Shown piece by piece: positions 5,940-15,157 of a DNA stretch of 15,157 nucleotides. The translations under genes were made by a program, and so were the position numbers. The notes under the pieces are model-generated. The model made no database searches and was not told the origin of the DNA. It was given only the letters and a program-made list of their open reading frames with translations. The stretch spans positions 1-15,157 of the IMG/VR virus record IMGVR_UViG_2648501466_000031; one strand, 5' to 3'. How positions within the stretch are numbered: the stretch's first letter is position 1; each line of letters starts with the position of its first letter. Source of the DNA: a virus (taxonomy: Duplodnaviria > Heunggongvirae > Uroviricota > Caudoviricetes).

Positions 5940-6977
5940 TTAACGCTTATCCGCCACCAGTTTGAGCGCGTGTTCCAGCACGTTAATGTCAGCACCCGCT
6001 TTATGGGCATTTTCACTTAAATAACGCCGCCACTGCCGCGCGCCAGGAATACCCTGGAACAAACCCAGCATATGCCGGGTAATATGGCCGAGATACGTCC
6101 CCTGGCTGAGTTCACGCTCAATGTACGGATACATGGCGCGCACTACCGCCACCGGATCGGCATCGGTATCCGAGGAACCAAAGATCTCCCGGTCTACCGC
6201 CGCCAGAATACCCGGATTCTGATACGCCTCGCGCCCGACCATCACGCCATCCATATGTTGCAGGTGTGCTTTGGCCTCTTCCAGCGACTTGATACCACCG
6301 TTAATCGACATTGTCAGATGCGGAAAGTCACGCTTCAGTTGATACACACGCGGATAATCGAGCGGCGGGATTTCACGGTTTTCTTTCGGGCTTAACCCCG
6401 AAAGCCAGGCTTTACGTGCGTGGATGATAAACATCTCACACTCGCCTTTGCCGGAAACAGTGTTGATGAAATCGCAGAGAAATTCATAGCTGTCCTGGTC
6501 ATCGATGCCAATACGCGTTTTCACCGTCACTGGAATCGACACCACATCGCGCATCGCTTTCACACAGTCGGCAACCAGCTGCGCATTACCCATCAGACAC
6601 GCACCAAACATGCCGTTCTGCACCCGGTCAGACGGGCAGCCGACATTCAGGTTGATCTCATCATATCCACGCGCTTCTGCCAGCTTCGCACACTGTGCCA
6701 GCGCCGCCGGATCGCTACCGCCGAGTTGCAACGCTACCGGATGTTCTTCTTCACTGTACGCCAGGTAATCACCTTTACCGTGAATAATCGCCCCTGTGGT
6801 CACCATTTCGGTATACAGCAACGTATTGCGGGAAAGCAGACGCAAGAAATAGCGGCAATGTCTGTCCGTCCAGTCGAGCATAGGAGCAATGCTAAACCGA
6901 GAATTCCAGTAAACACCAGTTTTTTCAGGCATCACGCTGGTTTGATTAATTTTTTGTGTTTCATGATTATCGTGCAT
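5940..6977 (-). CDS. dusA: tRNA-dihydrouridine synthase A, 345 aa as drawn; 5' end probably supplied by the adjacent prophage
   Basis: [17 protein letters not shown]… and the Dus catalytic region ([15 protein letters not shown]); the first ~12 codons (6941-6977) are ~24% GC versus ~45-55% for the rest; no Shine-Dalgarno seen at either M1 or M16, so the start is uncertain. Confidence 0.88.
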
Positions 6978-7010
6978 TTTTGAACATTTCAGGCTATTTT
7001 TCTCGCGTTA

Positions 7011-7046
7011 GGTTCCCGCACAGGTTCCCACGTTTTATGGGAACCC
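7011..7046. promoter_or_regulatory. GGTTCCC repeat cluster in the int 5' region: direct copy 7011-7017 plus inverted repeat GGTTCCCA-N7-TGGGAACC (7024-7046)
   Basis: Read directly; sits 20-55 nt upstream of the int ATG (7066) in the dusA-int divergent region; candidate operator or recombinase/RDF binding sites. Confidence 0.35.
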
Positions 7047-7065
7047 GAAATAACGAGGTCGTGTA

Positions 7066-8163
7066 ATGGCATACTATAACATAGAGAAACGACTAAAATC
7101 CGATGGCACACCACGCTATCGCTGTAATGTGATTATCAAAGAAAAAGGTGTTATCACTTACAGGGAAAGTAAAACATTCCCTAAACATGCTCATGCCAAA
7201 ACATGGGGCACACAGAAAGTGATGGAATTAGATCTATATGGCATTCCATCATCAAATGCAGTTGACGGACTTACAGTCCGTGACTTACTACACAAATATT
7301 TAAATGACCCAAATGCCGGAGGTAAAGCAGGCCGTACTAAAAGATATGTGCTGGAACTGCTTATGGATAGTGACGTCTCCGCGCTCAAACTATCTGAACT
7401 GACAGAAAATGACGTAATTGAACATTGCAGGCTAAGAAACAACGCTGGTGCAGGTCCAGCTACAGTTAGCCACGATGTTAGTTATCTTGGCAGTGTTCTG
7501 GATGCTGCCAAACCTGTATATGGAATTAATTACACATCAAACCCAGCAAAAGCCGCTCGTCCATATCTACTTAAACTTGGTTTAATTGGTAAATCAAATC
7601 GTCGTAATCGTAGACCGGCATCTGATGAACTGGACATGCTCATTGAAGGTCTTCAACAACGATCTACACATAAATGCTCAAAAATTCCGTTCGTTGATAT
7701 CCTCAAATTTTCTGTGTGGTCATGTATGCGAATCGGTGAAGTATGCCGATTACGATGGGAGGATCTCGATCAGGAACAAAAATCCATACTCGTAAGAGAC
7801 AGGAAAGATCCACGTAAAAAGGAAGGCAACCATATGAAAGTAGCCTTGCTTGGGGAAGCCTGGGATATCGTCCAACGACAACCCAAAAAATCAGAATTCA
7901 TTTTTCCATATAACAGCACTTCTGTTACTGCGGGATTCCAGAGGGTAAGAAGCAAATTAGGTATTAAAGATCTGCGATACCATGATTTGCGTAGAGAAGG
8001 GGCAAGTCGCTTATTTGAGGCTGGTTTTAGTATTGAGGAAGTCGCCCAGGTTACAGGGCATCGTTCATTAAACGTGCTATGGCAGGTATATACCGAACTG
8101 TATCCGAAATCTTTACATAATCGTTTTGAAGAGCTCCAAAGGAGCAGAAATAAGGCCTCTTGA
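7066..8163 (+). CDS. int: Phage tyrosine integrase (site-specific recombinase), likely dusA-associated integrase type, 365 aa
   Basis: Catalytic signature: box I R (CMRIGEVCRLRWEDL), HDLRR (H-x-x-R), GHRS, and tyrosine in WQVYTEL; position directly abutting and divergent from the dusA 5' end. Confidence 0.88.
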   Translation: MAYYNIEKRLKSDGTPRYRCNVIIKEKGVITYRESKTFPKHAHAKTWGTQKVMELDLYGIPSSNAVDGLTVRDLLHKYLNDPNAGGKAGRTKRYVLELLMDSDVSALKLSELTENDVIEHCRLRNNAGAGPATVSHDVSYLGSVLDAAKPVYGINYTSNPAKAARPYLLKLGLIGKSNRRNRRPASDELDMLIEGLQQRSTHKCSKIPFVDILKFSVWSCMRIGEVCRLRWEDLDQEQKSILVRDRKDPRKKEGNHMKVALLGEAWDIVQRQPKKSEFIFPYNSTSVTAGFQRVRSKLGIKDLRYHDLRREGASRLFEAGFSIEEVAQVTGHRSLNVLWQVYTELYPKSLHNRFEELQRSRNKAS

Positions 8164-8211
8164 CACTGTTTATCTATACAGTTAAAAATAATACTGTATA
8201 CAAACACAGTA
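8164..8211 (+). promoter_or_regulatory. Two tandem LexA (SOS) boxes upstream of the dinI-like gene
   Basis: Box 1 at 8164-8183 CACTGTttatctatACAGTT; box 2 at 8192-8211 TACTGTatacaaacACAGTA (perfect CTGT-N8-ACAG with TA flanks); RBS AGAGGGA and ATG at 8225 follow. Confidence 0.75.
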
Positions 8212-8224
8212 TAGAGGGACTTTT

Positions 8225-8473
8225 ATGCGTATTGAAATCTGCATAGCCAAAGAAAAAATGACTAAAATGCCAACCGGTGCTGTGGATGCGTTAAAGGAAG
8301 AATTAACCCGACGCATCAGTAAACGTTATGACGATGTAGAGGTGATCGTAAAAGCCACCAGCAACGATGGCCTTTCTGTTACACGCACCGCAGATAAGGA
8401 TTCTGCAAAAACTTTTGTTCAGGAGACTCTGAAAGATACCTGGGAATCTGCTGACGAGTGGTTTGTTCACTAA
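8225..8473 (+). CDS. dinI: DinI-family DNA-damage-inducible protein (RecA modulator), 82 aa
   Basis: [11 protein letters not shown]…[16 protein letters not shown]…LSV…[17 protein letters not shown] aligns along its length with E. coli DinI (MRIEVTIAK…GAIDAL…LQETWESADDWFV). Confidence 0.88.
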
Positions 8474-8652
8474 TTAACACGTAAAATCGGTAACGGCTGG
8501 AAATCATTCAATACTCGCACTATCGAAAGTTCGCCAGCCAGCCGTGGCACGTTCTTGCATACGACGTGCTACGGTTTCATTTATCTCCCGAAACTCCATT
8601 TGGATTTATCCGGTGCGCCGTAAAACCCCGTCCTTCAGGGCGTGGAGGATGT

Positions 8653-8736
8653 CAACTGGACGCACTGGAGCTGGTCGATACTTCCGGTGCGCCAGATATT
8701 GAATGGCCTACGCCTCCGGCAGTTCAGGCCAGATGA
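8653..8736 (+). pseudogene. Relic 3' end of a second, convergent tail-fibre-assembly gene (tfa-prime); only the C-terminal ~25 codons are recognisable
   Basis: Plus-strand frame at 8653-8733 reads QLDALELVDTSGAPDIEWPTPPAVQAR then TGA (8734-8736), matching the conserved Tfa C-terminal motif (VDTSTAPDIEWP); the upstream frame degenerates, with a stop at 8491; overlaps the minus-strand tfa 3' end by 29 bp. Confidence 0.45.
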
Positions 8737-9298
8737 CATCCGGCGCGGTGCTGGTATCTGTTGCCTGCACCGCCTTAATGTAGCCAATCCAGGCAATCAG
8801 GCTGGCTTTGTCATCGCCACTGATAATGCCTAACTGCAGTTCCGTTTGCCACAGGCTGATTTTTGAATTTGCGGCGTTCAGAAGATTTGTTTTCTGTTGC
8901 TCGGCTTCGGCCACGTTCGCCGAGTGCTGTTTATCGCTATCTGTAGCCCATTTGTCATATGGCGTAGATGGTGCTGTGGTGGTGGTGCCTTCCGGGTATT
9001 CTCCCAACCGTGAAACTGTCACATGCTTTCCAGTTTCCGTGCTGTAAACGGTTTCGCCGCGATGGTCTGCAACGTATTCCCAACCGGTCAAATCAGCCGT
9101 CCGGCAAACAGCAAAGCCGTCCTTTTTGCTGATTGGCGCATCCACGCACGAATTGCCTGGAACACCAACGCCAACGGGAAGATATTCAACAGCTAAACCG
9201 ATATATTCACGCGTCACGCCATCATAATTATAAACGGTGATATATCCGTCTTCCGTGGCGAAACCGTTTTCATCTAATGAAATTTCTTTTGCGGTCAT
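8708..9298 (-). CDS. tfa: Tail fibre assembly protein (Tfa / Mu U-like chaperone), 196 aa
   Basis: C-terminus …IAWIGYIKAVQATDTSTAPDVIWPELPEA is typical of the lambda Tfa / Mu U family; start overlaps the stop of the upstream fibre gene (TAATG). Confidence 0.85.
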   Translation of the reverse strand: MTAKEISLDENGFATEDGYITVYNYDGVTREYIGLAVEYLPVGVGVPGNSCVDAPISKKDGFAVCRTADLTGWEYVADHRGETVYSTETGKHVTVSRLGEYPEGTTTTAPSTPYDKWATDSDKQHSANVAEAEQQKTNLLNAANSKISLWQTELQLGIISGDDKASLIAWIGYIKAVQATDTSTAPDVIWPELPEA

Positions 9299-10053
9299 TA
9301 TACTGCCCTTACAATGTAGTTGAATGCGAGGTTGCGCGGGCGAGTTTCAGCACCTGTTGAACCATTCGCCTTTAAGTAAACCCAACCAGAGCCATTAAAA
9401 GTGGTTGCATTAATCATATATTTAATCGGAATCATGTCAGAGTCAGGGGTATCGCCCAGCCTGTCCCTGTAAGCGGTATCTGAACTGTATGCCATCGCTA
9501 GATCATGAGTATGCTGCTGTACTGATTGGCTCTGACCAGTTAAAACAACGCGCCCACTATCAACCCCGCGCCCATCATCCCAGCCACGGATAAATTCACC
9601 GCGCAAATCAGGCAATTTTAACGCTGGATAAACTTTTGCCAGCTCCGGGTATTCTTCAGCAGAAAAAGGCGCACCGTTGCATTTAATCCAGCCTGTTGGC
9701 GGTGTGGCTGAAGGCCACGGAACAGGTACACCAACGGGTAACGCTGAGCCTTCTCCCAAACCAAGGTTTTCGAGAGCCGTTTGCACAGTGCCATCCGATT
9801 TGATATCGCCAAACGGATTCTTGCGGCTTAACAGCAGCGCACGAAGTGCGGTAAGCAGCTGGTCATGCCGCCCTTTCTCCAGGCTGGCACCGGAGGCCTC
9901 CACCACGCTACAAAGTTCTTCCTGCAACATGTCAAAGTAGTCATCATCCAGATCGGTGGCAGGTGTGCCGGTCTGGGGGTTACCACGGGTAAAACCGTTC
10001 TTACCCGCGCCGAACTTATCCTTCTGCGCGGTTTTCGTGTCTATACGATGCAT
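9298..10053 (-). CDS. Short tail fibre protein with phage tail-collar domain (Mu S-like), 251 aa
   Basis: N-terminal fibre-anchor region followed by a collar-type motif ([22 protein letters not shown]…[17 protein letters not shown]); positioned between the gp48-like gene and tfa. Confidence 0.78.
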
Positions 10054-10056
10054 GGA

Positions 10057-10641
10057 TTACTCCGGATATTTAAAAATTACGTAGGTATGCGAAGGGCAGA
10101 GTTTGTTAAGCACGCACTCGACAACGGTGTCGCCCCAGATACGCAGTGCGGAATCACAGGGATCGCCACATGTCATCCAGGTGGTGTTGGTGGCGGCTGG
10201 CATGTTGACCTGCCAGTAATACCGCCATTCCGGCGCATTCACAGCGTCAGTACAGGCCGATGAGCAGGTGAACGTGCTTTTGTCGTATCGCGTGATGGCG
10301 GCATCTGGTCTGCCCAGGGCAGCAAGCTGTGCAAGGTAAAAATCCTCATTGATGCCGCCCGCCAGATTAACCTTCGCATCCAGCCGTTGCTGACGCTGGC
10401 GAAGGGTCTGTGTCCCTGCGGGAATACATTCATCCGGCAGACCGCACAGACGCTCCCAGCGGTTTATCAGTTCAGTGGTGGTGCGCGGATCCAGCTCCCG
10501 CATCAGGGCATCCGCACGCTGATGAACACGGGTTAATGACGGTGCCGCACCTGCAATCGCCGGATCGCTGGCTGACCACGCCGGACCGGGCGGCAGCAGT
10601 GCCGACAACAGACGGATGTAATCATCGTTTGTCACGTCCAT
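10057..10641 (-). CDS. Mu gp48 / YmfQ-like baseplate-wedge tail protein (DUF2313 family), 194 aa
   Basis: N-terminus [22 protein letters not shown] resembles YmfQ/gp48-family proteins; position between baseplate J and the fibre gene. Confidence 0.75.
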
Positions 10642-11690
10642 GAAATCGTCCCCAGAACCGCCAGTTCATTTTTTGCAATGGAGATATTGTCCGCCGGTGC
10701 AAGCAACTGATGGCTGTATTCCCCGTTCGCACCGGAAATCGCTTCACTGATACGTGACACCTTCAGTTCTCCCTGCGGATAACCATCACGCAGCAGGAAC
10801 GAACGCAACTCCGCGGTGATGGCAGCCCGTATTTCCGGTGTGTCCGGCGTCACACGGATATGAAAATCCACCGTATGTGCCACCGGCCTGAACACATACA
10901 AATCAGAGCCTGCCACCGGGGCCAGTGGCTCGATATGTTGTCTTGCCGCCGTTTCCGTTGATTCTTCCGGAATGGGATTAATCAGGTCACTGCTGGCAAT
11001 CATCACACCGACAGTCCCCGTTCCCATCCAGTGTCGGTATGTCCATGCGCGGGTAATGCCGGGCACTTCTTTAGCCCAGACGACATAGTCCCCGTCAGCC
11101 CCGCCCTGAGGCGTCCAGTAATACCGCTCAATGACGCGGGCGCGCCACGTTTCCAGCTCTTCAGTATCAAATCCGCCTGTAAGGGTGTCAGCCACACCGG
11201 AAGACGGCAGACCATTCACCGGCGTGACCAGGATTAATGCCGTACCGTCGTCAGCGTTACCGACCGCGCCTGTAGTTGAGCAAGTGATCGGCACACGCAG
11301 GACACCACCGGAGCTGGTTGCATCGGCAGTTGCCGTGTACTGAACCAGGTCATCGCGCTGAATCACGCTCCCGGCAGTCACCTTCAGGCCATCGCTGACA
11401 CCTTCCCAGCGCATATACCCGCTGGCAGCCGTGGCCCCCTTGCGCGGACATCGTTTCATCGCAGCATGTCGCGCCAGCCAGGACTCATCGCACAAGTCAG
11501 GCAGCATGTTCATTGCCAGATAATCGATGTACCCGTAAACCGTATGCAGCGCCGCCGCATACACCTTTGCCCGCACGTCTTCATCCATGCGCCGGAGCGT
11601 GTCGCTGACGTCCAGCCAGGCGAATAAATCGTTACGGAGCATACTGATATTTTCTGCCAGCGTCGGGCGCTGAAATTCACTGTCCGCCAT
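10632..11690 (-). CDS. Baseplate J-like protein (Mu gp47 / P2 gpJ family), 352 aa
   Basis: Size, position and sequence character of Baseplate_J family proteins; overlaps neighbours by 10 and 14 nt (translational coupling). Confidence 0.8.
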
Positions 11691-12105
11691 GCGTTATCGC
11701 ACTCCACAGATCATCAAAAGAAATCATTACCGGTCCGTCACGACGCCAGAGAGTGATACTGTTACCCAGTTCATTAATCCCGGTGCGGCGGATATCCAGA
11801 TCAATACGGGACACCACGCCATCATCAATCATCCATTGCAGGCATTCGCGGATATACCCCCTTACCGTCTGCACCAGCTGATTGGTCAGTTTGCTGCGCT
11901 GAAGCAGCCACAGTCGGGAGCCGTAACGGTCATTCTGTACCGCAGGCCAGGTATCCCCCCACCATCCCATCGGGACGCCGGCGTTGTCATCAGGCTCCGC
12001 CCGCCGCCAGGTAAACAGGGAAATCACCACGGCGCGGGTCAGCGGATCCAGCGGTGCGCTGGCGCAGGTGCGTTTACCGTTCACCGTCAGCCACAGTTCC
12101 ATCAT
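11677..12105 (-). CDS. Mu gp46-like baseplate protein (phage GP46 family), 142 aa
   Basis: Small protein between baseplate V and baseplate J, as in Mu-type tail modules; ATGA overlap with the upstream gene. Confidence 0.75.
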   Translation of the reverse strand: MMELWLTVNGKRTCASAPLDPLTRAVVISLFTWRRAEPDDNAGVPMGWWGDTWPAVQNDRYGSRLWLLQRSKLTNQLVQTVRGYIRECLQWMIDDGVVSRIDLDIRRTGINELGNSITLWRRDGPVMISFDDLWSAITHGGQ

Positions 12106-12650
12106 GCCTCCATCGCTTTATCAGGTTTGTCGGTGTTACTGCCCTGACCGTTCTCTATGTGACGATGCCCGTTATAGGCAAGCCGCATCGCTGACATGGT
12201 GGTGCCGCTGGAGTCGCACAGGTCTTTCACCTGTCCTGTCACTTCCAGGTCCATTTCAAAACGTGCCTTAGGCGCATTGCGAAACGTGATCGTTTTACCT
12301 GCACCGTCCACCACGATCCCCTCCCGGGTCAGCGTCACGGACTGCCCCTGATCGTCATAGACAGCCACCTCCCCAGTCTGCAGCCCTTTCAGGCGGTAGC
12401 GACGGTCCGACACCGTAACAACCACCGCATGAGAACGGTCTCCATCCGGAAACAACACCACCGCTTCCGCACCGCTGTTTGCCCTTGCGGTAAAACCGTA
12501 GGGTTCAAGATGTTCAACCCCGGCTTTGGGTTCACCGGCAATCAGGGACACATCCACGGTCTGACATTTCGTGGCGGCACTGATGCTTTTCACCACGGCC
12601 CGCCCAATCAGGCCGAGGAGTTGTCGCTGCATGGCTTCAATCGTCCTCAT
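12102..12650 (-). CDS. Baseplate assembly protein V / spike (Mu gp45, P2 gpV family), 182 aa
   Basis: Size and order match the baseplate spike of Mu-type modules; beta-rich central region typical of gpV OB-fold proteins. Confidence 0.78.
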   Translation of the reverse strand: MRTIEAMQRQLLGLIGRAVVKSISAATKCQTVDVSLIAGEPKAGVEHLEPYGFTARANSGAEAVVLFPDGDRSHAVVVTVSDRRYRLKGLQTGEVAVYDDQGQSVTLTREGIVVDGAGKTITFRNAPKARFEMDLEVTGQVKDLCDSSGTTMSAMRLAYNGHRHIENGQGSNTDKPDKAMEA

Positions 12651-13729
12651 CAGAACGGGTCCTCCTGTACTCTGGCTTTTTTCTTTTTCCGCGCGCCGGG
12701 GGCTTCGGGTTCAGGCAGATAAGCATCAGGCGGGCCGACACGGATTTCCGTCAGGGTGCCGTTCTGGTCCTGAGTAAACGTGACTTCCGAAACAAGCAGT
12801 TCGGTATTGTCGAAACCACAGACCGGATCAAAGACAATCACCCGCTGGTTGGGCTGCCACAGCGTACCGTTACCCTGTCGCCAGCCCTGCACCACATAGG
12901 TGGTTTCATCCGTCCGCGCCGCCCGTTGTCGGGCTTCAAAGTCCGCACGGGCAATACAGCCTGCCCCCGTAGCCTGCCCTGTCTGCCTGATATACATCGG
13001 ACGGTAACGGGCAATAAATGCGTCCTCTGTGCGGGCCCGCAGCGCGGTGGTGGTGGCCTCACCGAAATCATCGTCGTTTCCGGCACGCTGCCCCGCCACC
13101 TGGTAAACTGAAAACCGCTCCCGGATACTCTTCTCCGTATCACAGGAAAGGATGTTTTCCCCAAGTACCAGCGCGGTATGTGCCCGCGTTGAGCCAATAC
13201 CGCCAATCACCAGCCTGCCGTGCGGGTCGTCGTAAGCCAGTGCCTGCTGCTGACCGAGTATTTTGTTGATTACCTCAATCACCGTTTCACCGTGATCAGG
13301 CTGGACGTCAGGAATAACACCCGACGGCGCACCGTTGTTCACCACCTCAATGCCGAAGGGCGCAGCAAGCGCCTGCGCAATCTGTACCAGCGATCGTCCG
13401 TTAAACTGTGTCGGTTCGGCTGCACAGTCAATCAGATCAGCGGTTAGACTGCGTCCGGCAATACCAGTGCTGACCGAACGGGCATCGTAACGAACGGGCG
13501 TCGCCTCCACCCAGCCGGTGATCACCAGCTCATCACCAATCAGCACTTCCACTTTTGAACCGTTTTTAATGCGCGGCTGAAGCGTGGTGATACCCTCATC
13601 TCCCGGCCACTGGCGGGTGATCTCCACACTGAAATCCCGCGCCAGTCGTTCAACACCGGCACCGATGCGCACCGATGTCCAGCCATTCCACTCCCGGCCA
13701 TTTACCCGTAGCGTGACGTTATCGTTCAT
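12650..13729 (-). CDS. Mu P-like baseplate hub protein (gp44 / P2 gpD-like), 359 aa
   Basis: Size and position immediately downstream of the N-like gene; Lys-rich C-terminal tail (ARKKKKARVQEDPF). Confidence 0.75.
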   Translation of the reverse strand: MNDNVTLRVNGREWNGWTSVRIGAGVERLARDFSVEITRQWPGDEGITTLQPRIKNGSKVEVLIGDELVITGWVEATPVRYDARSVSTGIAGRSLTADLIDCAAEPTQFNGRSLVQIAQALAAPFGIEVVNNGAPSGVIPDVQPDHGETVIEVINKILGQQQALAYDDPHGRLVIGGIGSTRAHTALVLGENILSCDTEKSIRERFSVYQVAGQRAGNDDDFGEATTTALRARTEDAFIARYRPMYIRQTGQATGAGCIARADFEARQRAARTDETTYVVQGWRQGNGTLWQPNQRVIVFDPVCGFDNTELLVSEVTFTQDQNGTLTEIRVGPPDAYLPEPEAPGARKKKKARVQEDPF

Positions 13730-15054
13730 TGCACTGGCACCTTCAGAGGGATCACCGGCACAAAGCCGGGATGCGTAATGGCATTACGCCGGATAATGTC
13801 CGCGTCACGCGCCGCGTTATCAAACCAGGTCGCCGCCAGCACCAGCGCGGGTAAAACCTCATCCGGTGTGCGCTGAATGATCCGTGCAGACTGTTCAAGG
13901 CGCGTGTTGATATCCGCATTCAGATCTGCTTTCACCCGGCGCAGCGCCAGAAACAGCGCATCACTGGTTGTACGGGACAACTCCTTATCAATTGCCGTAT
14001 TCAGTGTGTCGCGAATGTCAGTCAGTTCTTCCCACGTCGGCAGGTCAACTGTGTTTTTCACCGCCGGTGCATTGTTCAGTGCCGGATGCGTGACGGAAGG
14101 CCAGCCAGTGCTCTGCGCAGGTGTTGTTGCCTGCCCCACTGCGGAATTCTGCATCACCGCGGAAGTTGTTGGCGCAGGCAATCGGGTGACGGCATACGCC
14201 GCTTCGCTGATTGCGGTCGTACGAAGGGTGCTGGCAACCACGTTACGCTGCTGCGTCGCCGTGGCGGTGGTTTTACTGTCCGTTTTCCAGACGCCGCGCG
14301 GTTGCAGATCGCTGCCGAGGCTGACACCGGAAAGCGTTTTGATCATGGTGACCAGGTCGCTGGCGTTACCATAAAGGCGTTTCCCGGTACGCCACATTTT
14401 CTGCACCTGCTCAACGAAATTTTTGCCTGACGATGGCGGCGGCAGAAGTACCGAGATATCCCCCTGCAACAGCCTGGCGGCATCCGATACGGCAGAATCC
14501 ACCACTTTCATCGCATCAGAAACATACCCCAGCATTATGCTGGCATTACCGATAACGTCGTTCTGCACAAAATCCGCCACACCATCGATACTGAAACCGC
14601 TGAAGCTGTCACTGATGCAGTCATCCAGTGCAGAACAGGATGACATCAGCGTCTGCGCCGTCGCCGCACCTGATGTGGGGTAAGAGAGTTCTCCTGCTTC
14701 GACAAACTTCAGGTCAAAGCGGACAATACGCCCTTCACTTTTCGATGTGCTGACCCGAACTTCCCCGTCAACACAGACTTTCAGCTCACCATATGTCGGG
14801 TGGACAAGCGTGCCGGGACCGGGTTTATTCAGCGCTTCAATCAGGCGATCGCGCTGGTCAAAGCAGTCATCTCCCACCACATAAGCTGTGATGGACGGGC
14901 GGAAAGTGACTTTTCCCAGATCTTCGGTATAGGGCTTGTCGCGGTTCGGATATTCGTGTGTTTCCACACGGCGACCGGTTCCCGCACTTTCTTCTTCAAC
15001 CTTAAACGGTACGCCGCGAAATGACGCATCCTGAAGCCTGTCTTTCCACGTCAT
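13726..15054 (-). CDS. Mu N-like DNA circulation protein (tail hub / tape-measure-associated), 442 aa
   Basis: N-terminus MTWKDRLQDASFRGVPFKVEEES… is characteristic of the Mu N (DNA_circ_N) family; RBS GGAG 7 nt upstream of the ATG at 15054. Confidence 0.82.
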   Translation of the reverse strand: MTWKDRLQDASFRGVPFKVEEESAGTGRRVETHEYPNRDKPYTEDLGKVTFRPSITAYVVGDDCFDQRDRLIEALNKPGPGTLVHPTYGELKVCVDGEVRVSTSKSEGRIVRFDLKFVEAGELSYPTSGAATAQTLMSSCSALDDCISDSFSGFSIDGVADFVQNDVIGNASIMLGYVSDAMKVVDSAVSDAARLLQGDISVLLPPPSSGKNFVEQVQKMWRTGKRLYGNASDLVTMIKTLSGVSLGSDLQPRGVWKTDSKTTATATQQRNVVASTLRTTAISEAAYAVTRLPAPTTSAVMQNSAVGQATTPAQSTGWPSVTHPALNNAPAVKNTVDLPTWEELTDIRDTLNTAIDKELSRTTSDALFLALRRVKADLNADINTRLEQSARIIQRTPDEVLPALVLAATWFDNAARDADIIRRNAITHPGFVPVIPLKVPVQ

Positions 15055-15070
15055 ATAAACTCCGGATACA

Positions 15071-15125
15071 AAAAACCCGCCAAATCTGCTTTGTCAGTTA
15101 TTTACATCGCAGAAGATGTGGCGGG
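15071..15125 (-). terminator. Intrinsic terminator on the minus strand immediately upstream of the N-like gene
   Basis: Minus-strand reading: GC-rich stem CCCGCCA…TGGCGGG (plus inner pairing CTGC/GCAG) followed by TTTTTTG, ending 16 nt before the N gene ATG. Confidence 0.5.
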
Positions 15126-15157
15126 AACCTAATATTTTTAATTACTATCTGAGTTGA

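Follow-up and report, generated by a model that had tools for sequence, protein, structure and literature searches.

Junction of an Escherichia coli dusA gene and an SfV/SKA5-like temperate phage mapped to an 8-bp core

We are almost certain that the stretch of DNA analysed here (15,157 nucleotides, hereafter the window) contains attL and the adjoining end of a temperate phage that has integrated into the E. coli dusA gene, with structural genes of the SfV/SKA5 type and a Mu-like contractile tail. Recombination of attP and attB by the phage tyrosine integrase took place within an 8-bp core, ATGCTCGA, which occupies nucleotides (nt) 97-104 of dusA. Since attP holds a diverged copy of dusA nt 1-96 beside this core, the product is a full-length, in-frame chimeric dusA whose first 32 codons come from the phage, and the original 104-nt 5' end of the host gene would be shifted to the far end of the prophage (attR), outside the window. 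The arrangement is already known: it was defined in 2015, and a near-identical E. coli element stands in the founding paper's table (Farrugia et al. 2015), while experiments published in 2019 demonstrated integration by an integrase that is almost identical (PMC6328086). This is thus an ordinary, common type of prophage, and it carries little weight as a discovery. It does matter for annotation, in that dusA here is a host-phage chimera, with strain-specific DNA beginning at 6881/6882, inside the gene, and not at its start codon.

The E. coli genes in the window are tyrB, alr, dnaB, qorA, pspG and dusA, in the same order as in K-12. Upstream of dusA, K-12 has yjbM, yjbL and zur, and the window instead has an integrase gene followed by phage genes; the K-12 gene order bears out the initial annotation, which had placed a prophage where K-12 has its yjbM/yjbL/zur side. 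The dusA reading frame (5940-6977, minus strand) is intact and encodes 345 amino acids, with strong matches to Pfam Dus (E 8e-105) and NCBIfam DusA (581 bits). The integrase gene (7066-8163, plus strand) encodes a 365-residue tyrosine integrase of the dusA-associated family (Pfam Phage_integrase, PF00589, E 1e-20). The two start codons are divergent and the gap between them is exactly 88 bp (6978-7065), just as had been read from the open reading frames and the sequence; this spacer is phage-derived and forms the P arm of attP. The expectation that phage structural genes follow the integrase also held up in Pfam searches, which found a DinI-like gene and then Mu-type tail and baseplate genes. 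The DinI-like prophage gene (8225-8473, plus strand; Pfam DinI, E 1e-19) belongs to PHROG 189, the RecA-filament-binding DinI family. In front of it, two LexA-box-like sites of the form CTG-N10-CAG can be read from the sequence on the plus strand (8164-8183 and 8192-8211), and the pair overlaps a promoter-like match at 8160-8189, with TTGACA at 8160. The remaining phage genes lie on the minus strand: a tail fibre assembly gene (8708-9298; Pfam Caudo_TAP) and a tail fibre gene (9298-10053; Pfam Collar), both also matched by PHROG tail fibre families, then baseplate genes that Pfam likens to Mu gp48, gp47/J, gp46, gp45 and gp44 (10057-13729), and a gp43-like DNA-circularisation protein, also by Pfam (13726-15054). 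A scan of the whole window with Rfam gave 0 matches.

The position of the junction is set by the way in which dusA differs from its K-12 counterpart. Over nt 1-96 the alignment has 18 mismatches (18.8%), and over nt 97-1038 only 15 in 942 positions (1.6%), so that the dense cluster of mismatches ends at nt 96. At the protein level, 9 of the first 32 DusA residues differ from K-12, with the RFS(V/I)APMLDW strand kept. Alignment to the unoccupied K-12 gene, which the initial annotation had proposed as a check, located the core at nt 97-104, and the gene as it stands in the window can be divided accordingly on the minus strand: a host-derived part, nt 105-1038 (5940-6873), falling within the region of 1.6% mismatch over nt 97-1038; the 8-bp attL crossover core (6874-6881), the same in attB, attP, attL and attR; and a phage-borne replacement 5' end, codons 1-32 (6882-6977), in frame with the host part and 100% identical to the attP arm of phage SKA5. 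The insertion at the 5' end of dusA that had been put forward therefore stands, and can be placed within the coding sequence, about 100 bases in, with the step in mismatches at nt 96/97; the suggested start of the element, 6880, falls inside the mapped core.

That the element brings its own dusA 5' end, as was also claimed, is supported by comparison with free phage DNA. Window positions 6882-7000, which comprise dusA nt 1-96 and 23 nt of the spacer, are 100% identical to the attP-proximal arm of SKA5, whose record annotates the matching attP stretch as a 123-bp 'tRNA-dihydrouridine' ORF. The attP arm of phage mEp460 is closely similar to window dusA nt 1-96, with several substitutions. Past the octamer ATGCTCGA, SKA5 and mEp460 run into TAGGATGTACCG..., whereas the window runs into host dusA. 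When the window, K-12 and the distal end of the strain 81 element (described below) were aligned together, the 88-bp spacer showed no similarity to the K-12 DNA upstream of the dusA ATG. All four att sites could thus be located: attB in K-12, attP in SKA5 and mEp460, attL in the window and attR in related genomes, and the attP of SKA5 and mEp460 corresponds to the left arm of the window, the core and the right arm of attR joined together. Around the junction, window 6869-6887 (TCCAGTCGAGCATAGGAGC) matches the published Citrobacter rodentium attB string TCCAGTCGAGCATGGGAGC at 18 of 19 bases (PMC6328086). One might instead suppose that the phage inserted into intergenic DNA upstream of dusA and that the differences at the 5' end are mere allelic variation, as the full-length dusA ORF, with its start at the same position as in K-12, would allow. 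We rejected this model on the fall in divergence from 18.8% to 1.6% exactly at nt 96/97, and give it next to no chance of being right: dusA nt 1-96 are 100% identical to a free phage, SKA5, and closely similar in mEp460, and in occupied genomes nt 1-104 are present a second time, in K-12-like form, at the other end of the element.

This second copy is found in GPEC1222, ETEC H10407 and strain 81, in each of which the integrase lies at dusA and the element ends, on its other side, with the 104 nt that originally began dusA. Their attR copies are K-12-like through nt 104 and then continue into a common phage sequence; the displaced fragment is annotated as a partial tRNA-dihydrouridine synthase pseudogene, 105 bp long in GPEC1222 and H10407. 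The initial annotation had named the same gene arrangement without a second att repeat as the case that would speak against it; GPEC1222, H10407 and strain 81 each carry the second att site. GPEC1222 and H10407 contain full prophages of ~39 kb, with the order dusA, int, dinI, invertase, fibre, Mu-like tail, head, terminase, lysis, regulation, PrtN-like gene and attR, and the tail-gene arrangement is the same as in the window. The element in strain 81 is an 8.5-kb remnant without structural genes, in which the dusA-int-dinI segment is 100% identical to the window over 1801 bp. The window covers only ~8.3 kb of its element, with attR and ~30 kb of prophage lying beyond 15157. By analogy with these relatives, the core repeat at the far end of the element would be expected to fit the pattern CCAATGCTCGATRGGATGTAYCG, and that end would read as K-12-like dusA nt 1-104, then TRGGATGTAYCG..., then a GGGAGCC-TAT-TGGGAACC pair, and then yjbM and zur.

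The H10407 element provides an independent check on the junction. Table S1 of Farrugia et al. (2015) gives it as a dusA-specific 'phage lysogen' (4684277..4723914), and these coordinates in NC_017633.1 fall at the end of the displaced fragment and at dusA nt 104, which is the junction that we mapped independently; the insertion point, dusA nt 104, is thus the same in both. The order of dinI, tail fibre and Mu-like baseplate genes is also shared with the window. The two elements differ between dinI and the fibre assembly gene, where H10407 contains a Pin-like invertase together with an alternative fibre/assembly segment; neither is present in the window. They also differ in their tail fibre allele. 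SKA5 (OR670062.1), an SfV/SfI/SfII-like phage with Mu-type tail genes, covers 86% of window 6978-15157 at 98.1% identity; its genome is that of a free phage, its attP is intact, and it carries the invertase segment missing from the window. More broadly, the tail module shares 97-98% nucleotide identity with its counterparts in SKA5, SfI, SfII, SfIV and SfV, and we assign the structural genes to the SfV/SKA5-like type on the basis of a Mu gp43-gp48-like module at 97-98% identity over 65-86% of window 6978-15157.

Experimental evidence for integration at this site comes from 1720a-02 (PhiStx2dact, KF030445.1), a lambdoid phage that carries stx2 (PMC6328086) and whose integrase shares 99.2% protein identity with that of the window. 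For this phage, the insertion point was shown experimentally to lie 100 bp into dusA (Balasubramanian et al. 2019, PMC6328086). Sequencing covered both junctions, attL and attR, together with attP circles excised in vivo, and a short conserved core was described; 99.56% of the junction reads lay at dusA and the rest were excised attP; and the phage encodes a PhidusA' ORF in frame with the host gene (PMC6328086). The integrases of mEp460 and its variant mEp460_4F5 are likewise close, at 97.5-98.6% protein identity, the value for mEp460 being 97.5%. mEp460 has an attP and dinI module like that of the window, at 97% nucleotide identity, but it is lambdoid and has a lambda-type side tail fibre, whereas the tail in the window is Mu-type; for both 1720a-02 and mEp460, the match to the window is seen in the integration module only. 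Further afield, D1279779_RGP05 of Acinetobacter baumannii and Prophage 03 of Pseudomonas protegens Pf-5 (Farrugia et al. 2015) have the same divergent integrase at the 5' end of dusA, an element-supplied 5' end and semi-conserved att repeats, as in the window. They belong to other genera and carry other cargo, and we liken them to the window by their published description.

The integrase in the window has the catalytic residues of a tyrosine recombinase (R-K-H-R-H/W-Y): when it is aligned to 13 relatives (58-82% identity), R222, H306, R309, H332 and Y342 prove invariant and the lysines of RKDPRKK conserved. Its assignment to the dusA-associated integrases, made initially from gene geometry, gains support from several sides. 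The integrase lies divergently beside the dusA 5' end, the element carries an in-frame replacement of that end, the core ATGCTCGA at the junction is common to attB, attP, attL and attR, and nucleotide identity to the H10407 element in Table S1 of Farrugia et al. (2015) is 99.6% over dusA-int-dinI. When we surveyed relatives with an integrase-alignment scan, taking one genome per species, we obtained 80 loci, 5 of which had too little upstream sequence to be evaluated. A divergent dusA was present 60-114 bp upstream in 55 of the 75 evaluable relatives from other species (52-98% identity), and these are spread over Enterobacterales, Vibrionales, Alteromonadales, Aeromonadales and other orders. 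A scan of viral contigs with the same alignment gave E. coli-type integrases in all of the best 80 matches (88-100% identity), which were of no use for covariation, and complete phage records were used instead.

The other 20 evaluable relatives, mostly at 52-65% identity, have no dusA within 3 kb upstream; they come mostly from Xenorhabdus, Serratia, Providencia, Raoultella, Enterobacter and Buttiauxella. They show that the integrase family includes members with other targets, and non-cognate targets within it were also reported by Farrugia et al. (2015). These exceptions could be taken to mean that the window integrase, too, comes from a group whose normal target lies elsewhere, and that its position at dusA is secondary or accidental. 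Such an accident is extremely improbable, and we rejected it: the integrase is found at dusA in 729 E. coli genomes, of the 27 evaluable relatives with at least 64% identity, 24 have dusA next to the integrase, and the 99.2% identical integrase of 1720a-02 targets dusA specifically, with 99.56% of junction reads there (PMC6328086).

Those 729 genomes, among 5426 complete E. coli genomes (~13%, or about one in eight), are the ones that contain the dusA-int-dinI segment at a coverage of at least 80%. Escherichia had already been listed among the genera in which dusA-associated integrases are over-represented (Farrugia et al. 2015). For the longer stretch, which runs from dusA as far as the baseplate genes, coverage reaches at least 80% in 121 of the 5426 genomes. 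A match to the whole window is absent from this set, the best having 91% coverage at 98% identity. The int-dinI module shares 96-98% identity with lambdoid mEp460 and with other phage types, including the Stx2k phage phiSTEC1575, and the 260 matching phage records include many Stx-converting phages. Since int-dinI is common to such unlike phages, it is an integration module that is exchanged across phage morphologies.

Is the prophage copy in the window still active? We think that it probably is. For 1720a-02, with its 99.2% identical integrase, integration has been shown, as has excision in the form of a circle with restoration of wild-type dusA (PMC6328086). It is also possible, if unlikely, that the element is a decayed, non-inducible remnant that retains int and some tail genes, having integrated by the same mechanism and since lost its mobility. 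Strain 81 offers a precedent, with an identical dusA-int-dinI segment in an 8.5-kb remnant stripped of structural genes, and the invertase and alternative tail-fibre segment of SKA5, H10407 and GPEC1222 is missing from the window copy, which could reflect a deletion. Yet every phage ORF in the window is intact; seven of them (int, dinI and the run ymfQ/gp48 to gp43) are as long, or very nearly as long, as their SKA5 counterparts; and the tail module remains 97-98% identical to those of SfI, SfII, SfV and SKA5. We therefore favor an active prophage over a decayed one.

The spacer that separates dusA from int is phage DNA and would have to carry promoters for both genes, so that the chimeric dusA is presumably transcribed from a phage promoter. 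A sigma-70 promoter scan of 6800-8700 found no strong match in this spacer and a single one ahead of dinI; because this consensus scan of the spacer found none, the phage origin of the dusA promoter is something that we infer. Putative -10 and -35 elements have been reported for other dusA-integrase cases (Farrugia et al. 2015). The chimeric DusA protein is itself likely to be functional; Farrugia et al. (2015) argue that the TIM barrel obtains its first beta strand from the replacement.

The spacer also contains short repeats that are probably arm-type integrase-binding sites, judging from their sequence and placement. The word GGGAACC occurs five times in the window, and three of these copies fall within 35 bp (7011-7045), 20-55 bp upstream of int: a tandem pair on the minus strand with a period of 12 (7011-7017 and 7023-7029) and, nearest to int, an inverted copy on the plus strand (7039-7045). 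In other genera, relatives carry repeats at the corresponding position that keep this direct-direct-inverted layout and are built from another repeat word. An exact direct repeat of 7 nucleotides with a period of 10-13, within 80 bp upstream of int, is present at 34 of the 55 dusA-associated loci, as compared with 0.6 loci on average, and at most 4, in shuffled controls. In attP and attR sequences, a tandem pair of each element's word recurs on the other attP arm, ~40-45 nt past the core. For the E. coli element of the window, the word by int is GGGAACC and the far-arm pair is GGGAGCC-TAT-TGGGAACC. The words on both attP arms are GGGGTGCT in Yersinia YeP2, GGTGTCC in Morganella IME1369_02, GGGGTACT in the tectivirus-like phage Vibrio 1F53_PE004 and GGGAGACT in Salinivibrio SMHB1; Pseudoalteromonas C5a has GGGTGACT/GGGGGACT, with a weaker match between the arms. 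A literature search on dusA and arm-type sites found no description of these repeats.

Which protein would bind the repeats bears on how they are read. A permissive Pfam search of the integrase N-terminus gave nothing for residues 1-100 and, over residues 73-165, only a match to Int_N that falls below the threshold (E 0.09). Because Pfam detects no arm-binding domain, the arm-type role is a matter of interpretation, and a regulator or an excision factor could bind the GGGAACC-type repeats in place of the integrase. Returning to integrase binding, E. coli elements with unlike cargo lose homology right after the far-arm repeat pair, which suggests a functional attP of ~270 bp. The layout that we propose for this attP would consist of the inverted copy, two direct copies, the phage-borne dusA start, the core, ~45 nt and two more direct copies. 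Whether such arm-type sites define a conserved ~270-bp attP architecture for the dusA-integrase family as a whole is, in our estimation, an evenly balanced question. As the repeats lie in the spacer common to int and dusA', integrase binding there might make expression of the chimeric gene depend on the prophage state. The layout of the arm repeats, conserved while the words differ, may be a minor addition to what is known of these elements, and it could guide attP prediction and footprinting.

The dusA-targeting integrase module of the window is also carried by Vibrio phage 1F53_PE004 (PQ189389.1; locus L169 in our comparison), a 14-kb PM2-like tailless phage of the Vinavirales. As in the window, the module includes a dusA 5' end supplied by the phage, and both ends of the phage record show the core, ATGCTCGATTGGA. 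The module is thus present in a tailless phage, and it therefore crosses between viral realms.

In the window, GGGAACC repeats lie upstream of the integrase gene at 7011-7045, and the repeated word varies from element to element (element-specific repeats were recorded in the window and at loci L167 (YeP2), L169, L170, L171, L172/L173, L003 and L086). An exact 7-mer tandem repeat occupies this position in 34 of the 55 dusA-associated loci, against 0.6 expected from shuffled sequences. In six different phages, each element's own word recurs about 45 nt beyond the core, on the opposite attP arm. These element-specific tandem repeats are likely arm-type integrase-binding sites; we found no published description of them in the literature on dusA and arm-type sites.

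Twenty integrase relatives, mostly 52-65% identical, have no dusA inside 3 kb upstream (L027, L031-L033, L036-L039, L041-L044, L050, L052, L053, L060, L063, L064, L068 and L080). Their hosts are mostly Xenorhabdus, Serratia, Providencia, Raoultella, Enterobacter and Buttiauxella, with some Shewanella, and these lineages use target sites other than dusA. Klebsiella phage Kp4882-1 retains tandem GGGGTGCT repeats and lacks the dusA-like arm.

An 8.5-kb remnant without structural genes occupies positions 20279-28892 of the E. coli strain 81 locus (L002). Its dusA-int-dinI segment is 100% identical to the window over 1801 bp, and the displaced dusA 5' fragment still borders it; this is the same prophage type as in the window, decayed in place. 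A Pin-like DNA invertase and an alternative tail fibre/assembly segment separate dinI from the tail fibre assembly gene in the free phage SKA5 and in the full prophages of ETEC H10407 and GPEC1222; the window has neither. The region of difference spans 8579-9550: the match to all three ends at 8578 and restarts only at 8656-8782, and the window's allele of the fibre C-terminus and assembly gene also differs from theirs. The window has either suffered a deletion here or carries a fibre module that does not invert.

Upstream of the prophage dinI-like gene, a promoter-like TTGACA at 8160 is overlapped by two LexA-box-like sites with the CTG-N10-CAG pattern, CACTGTTTATCTATACAGTT (8164-8183) and TACTGTATACAAACACAGTA (8192-8211), an arrangement that suggests that this gene is under SOS control.
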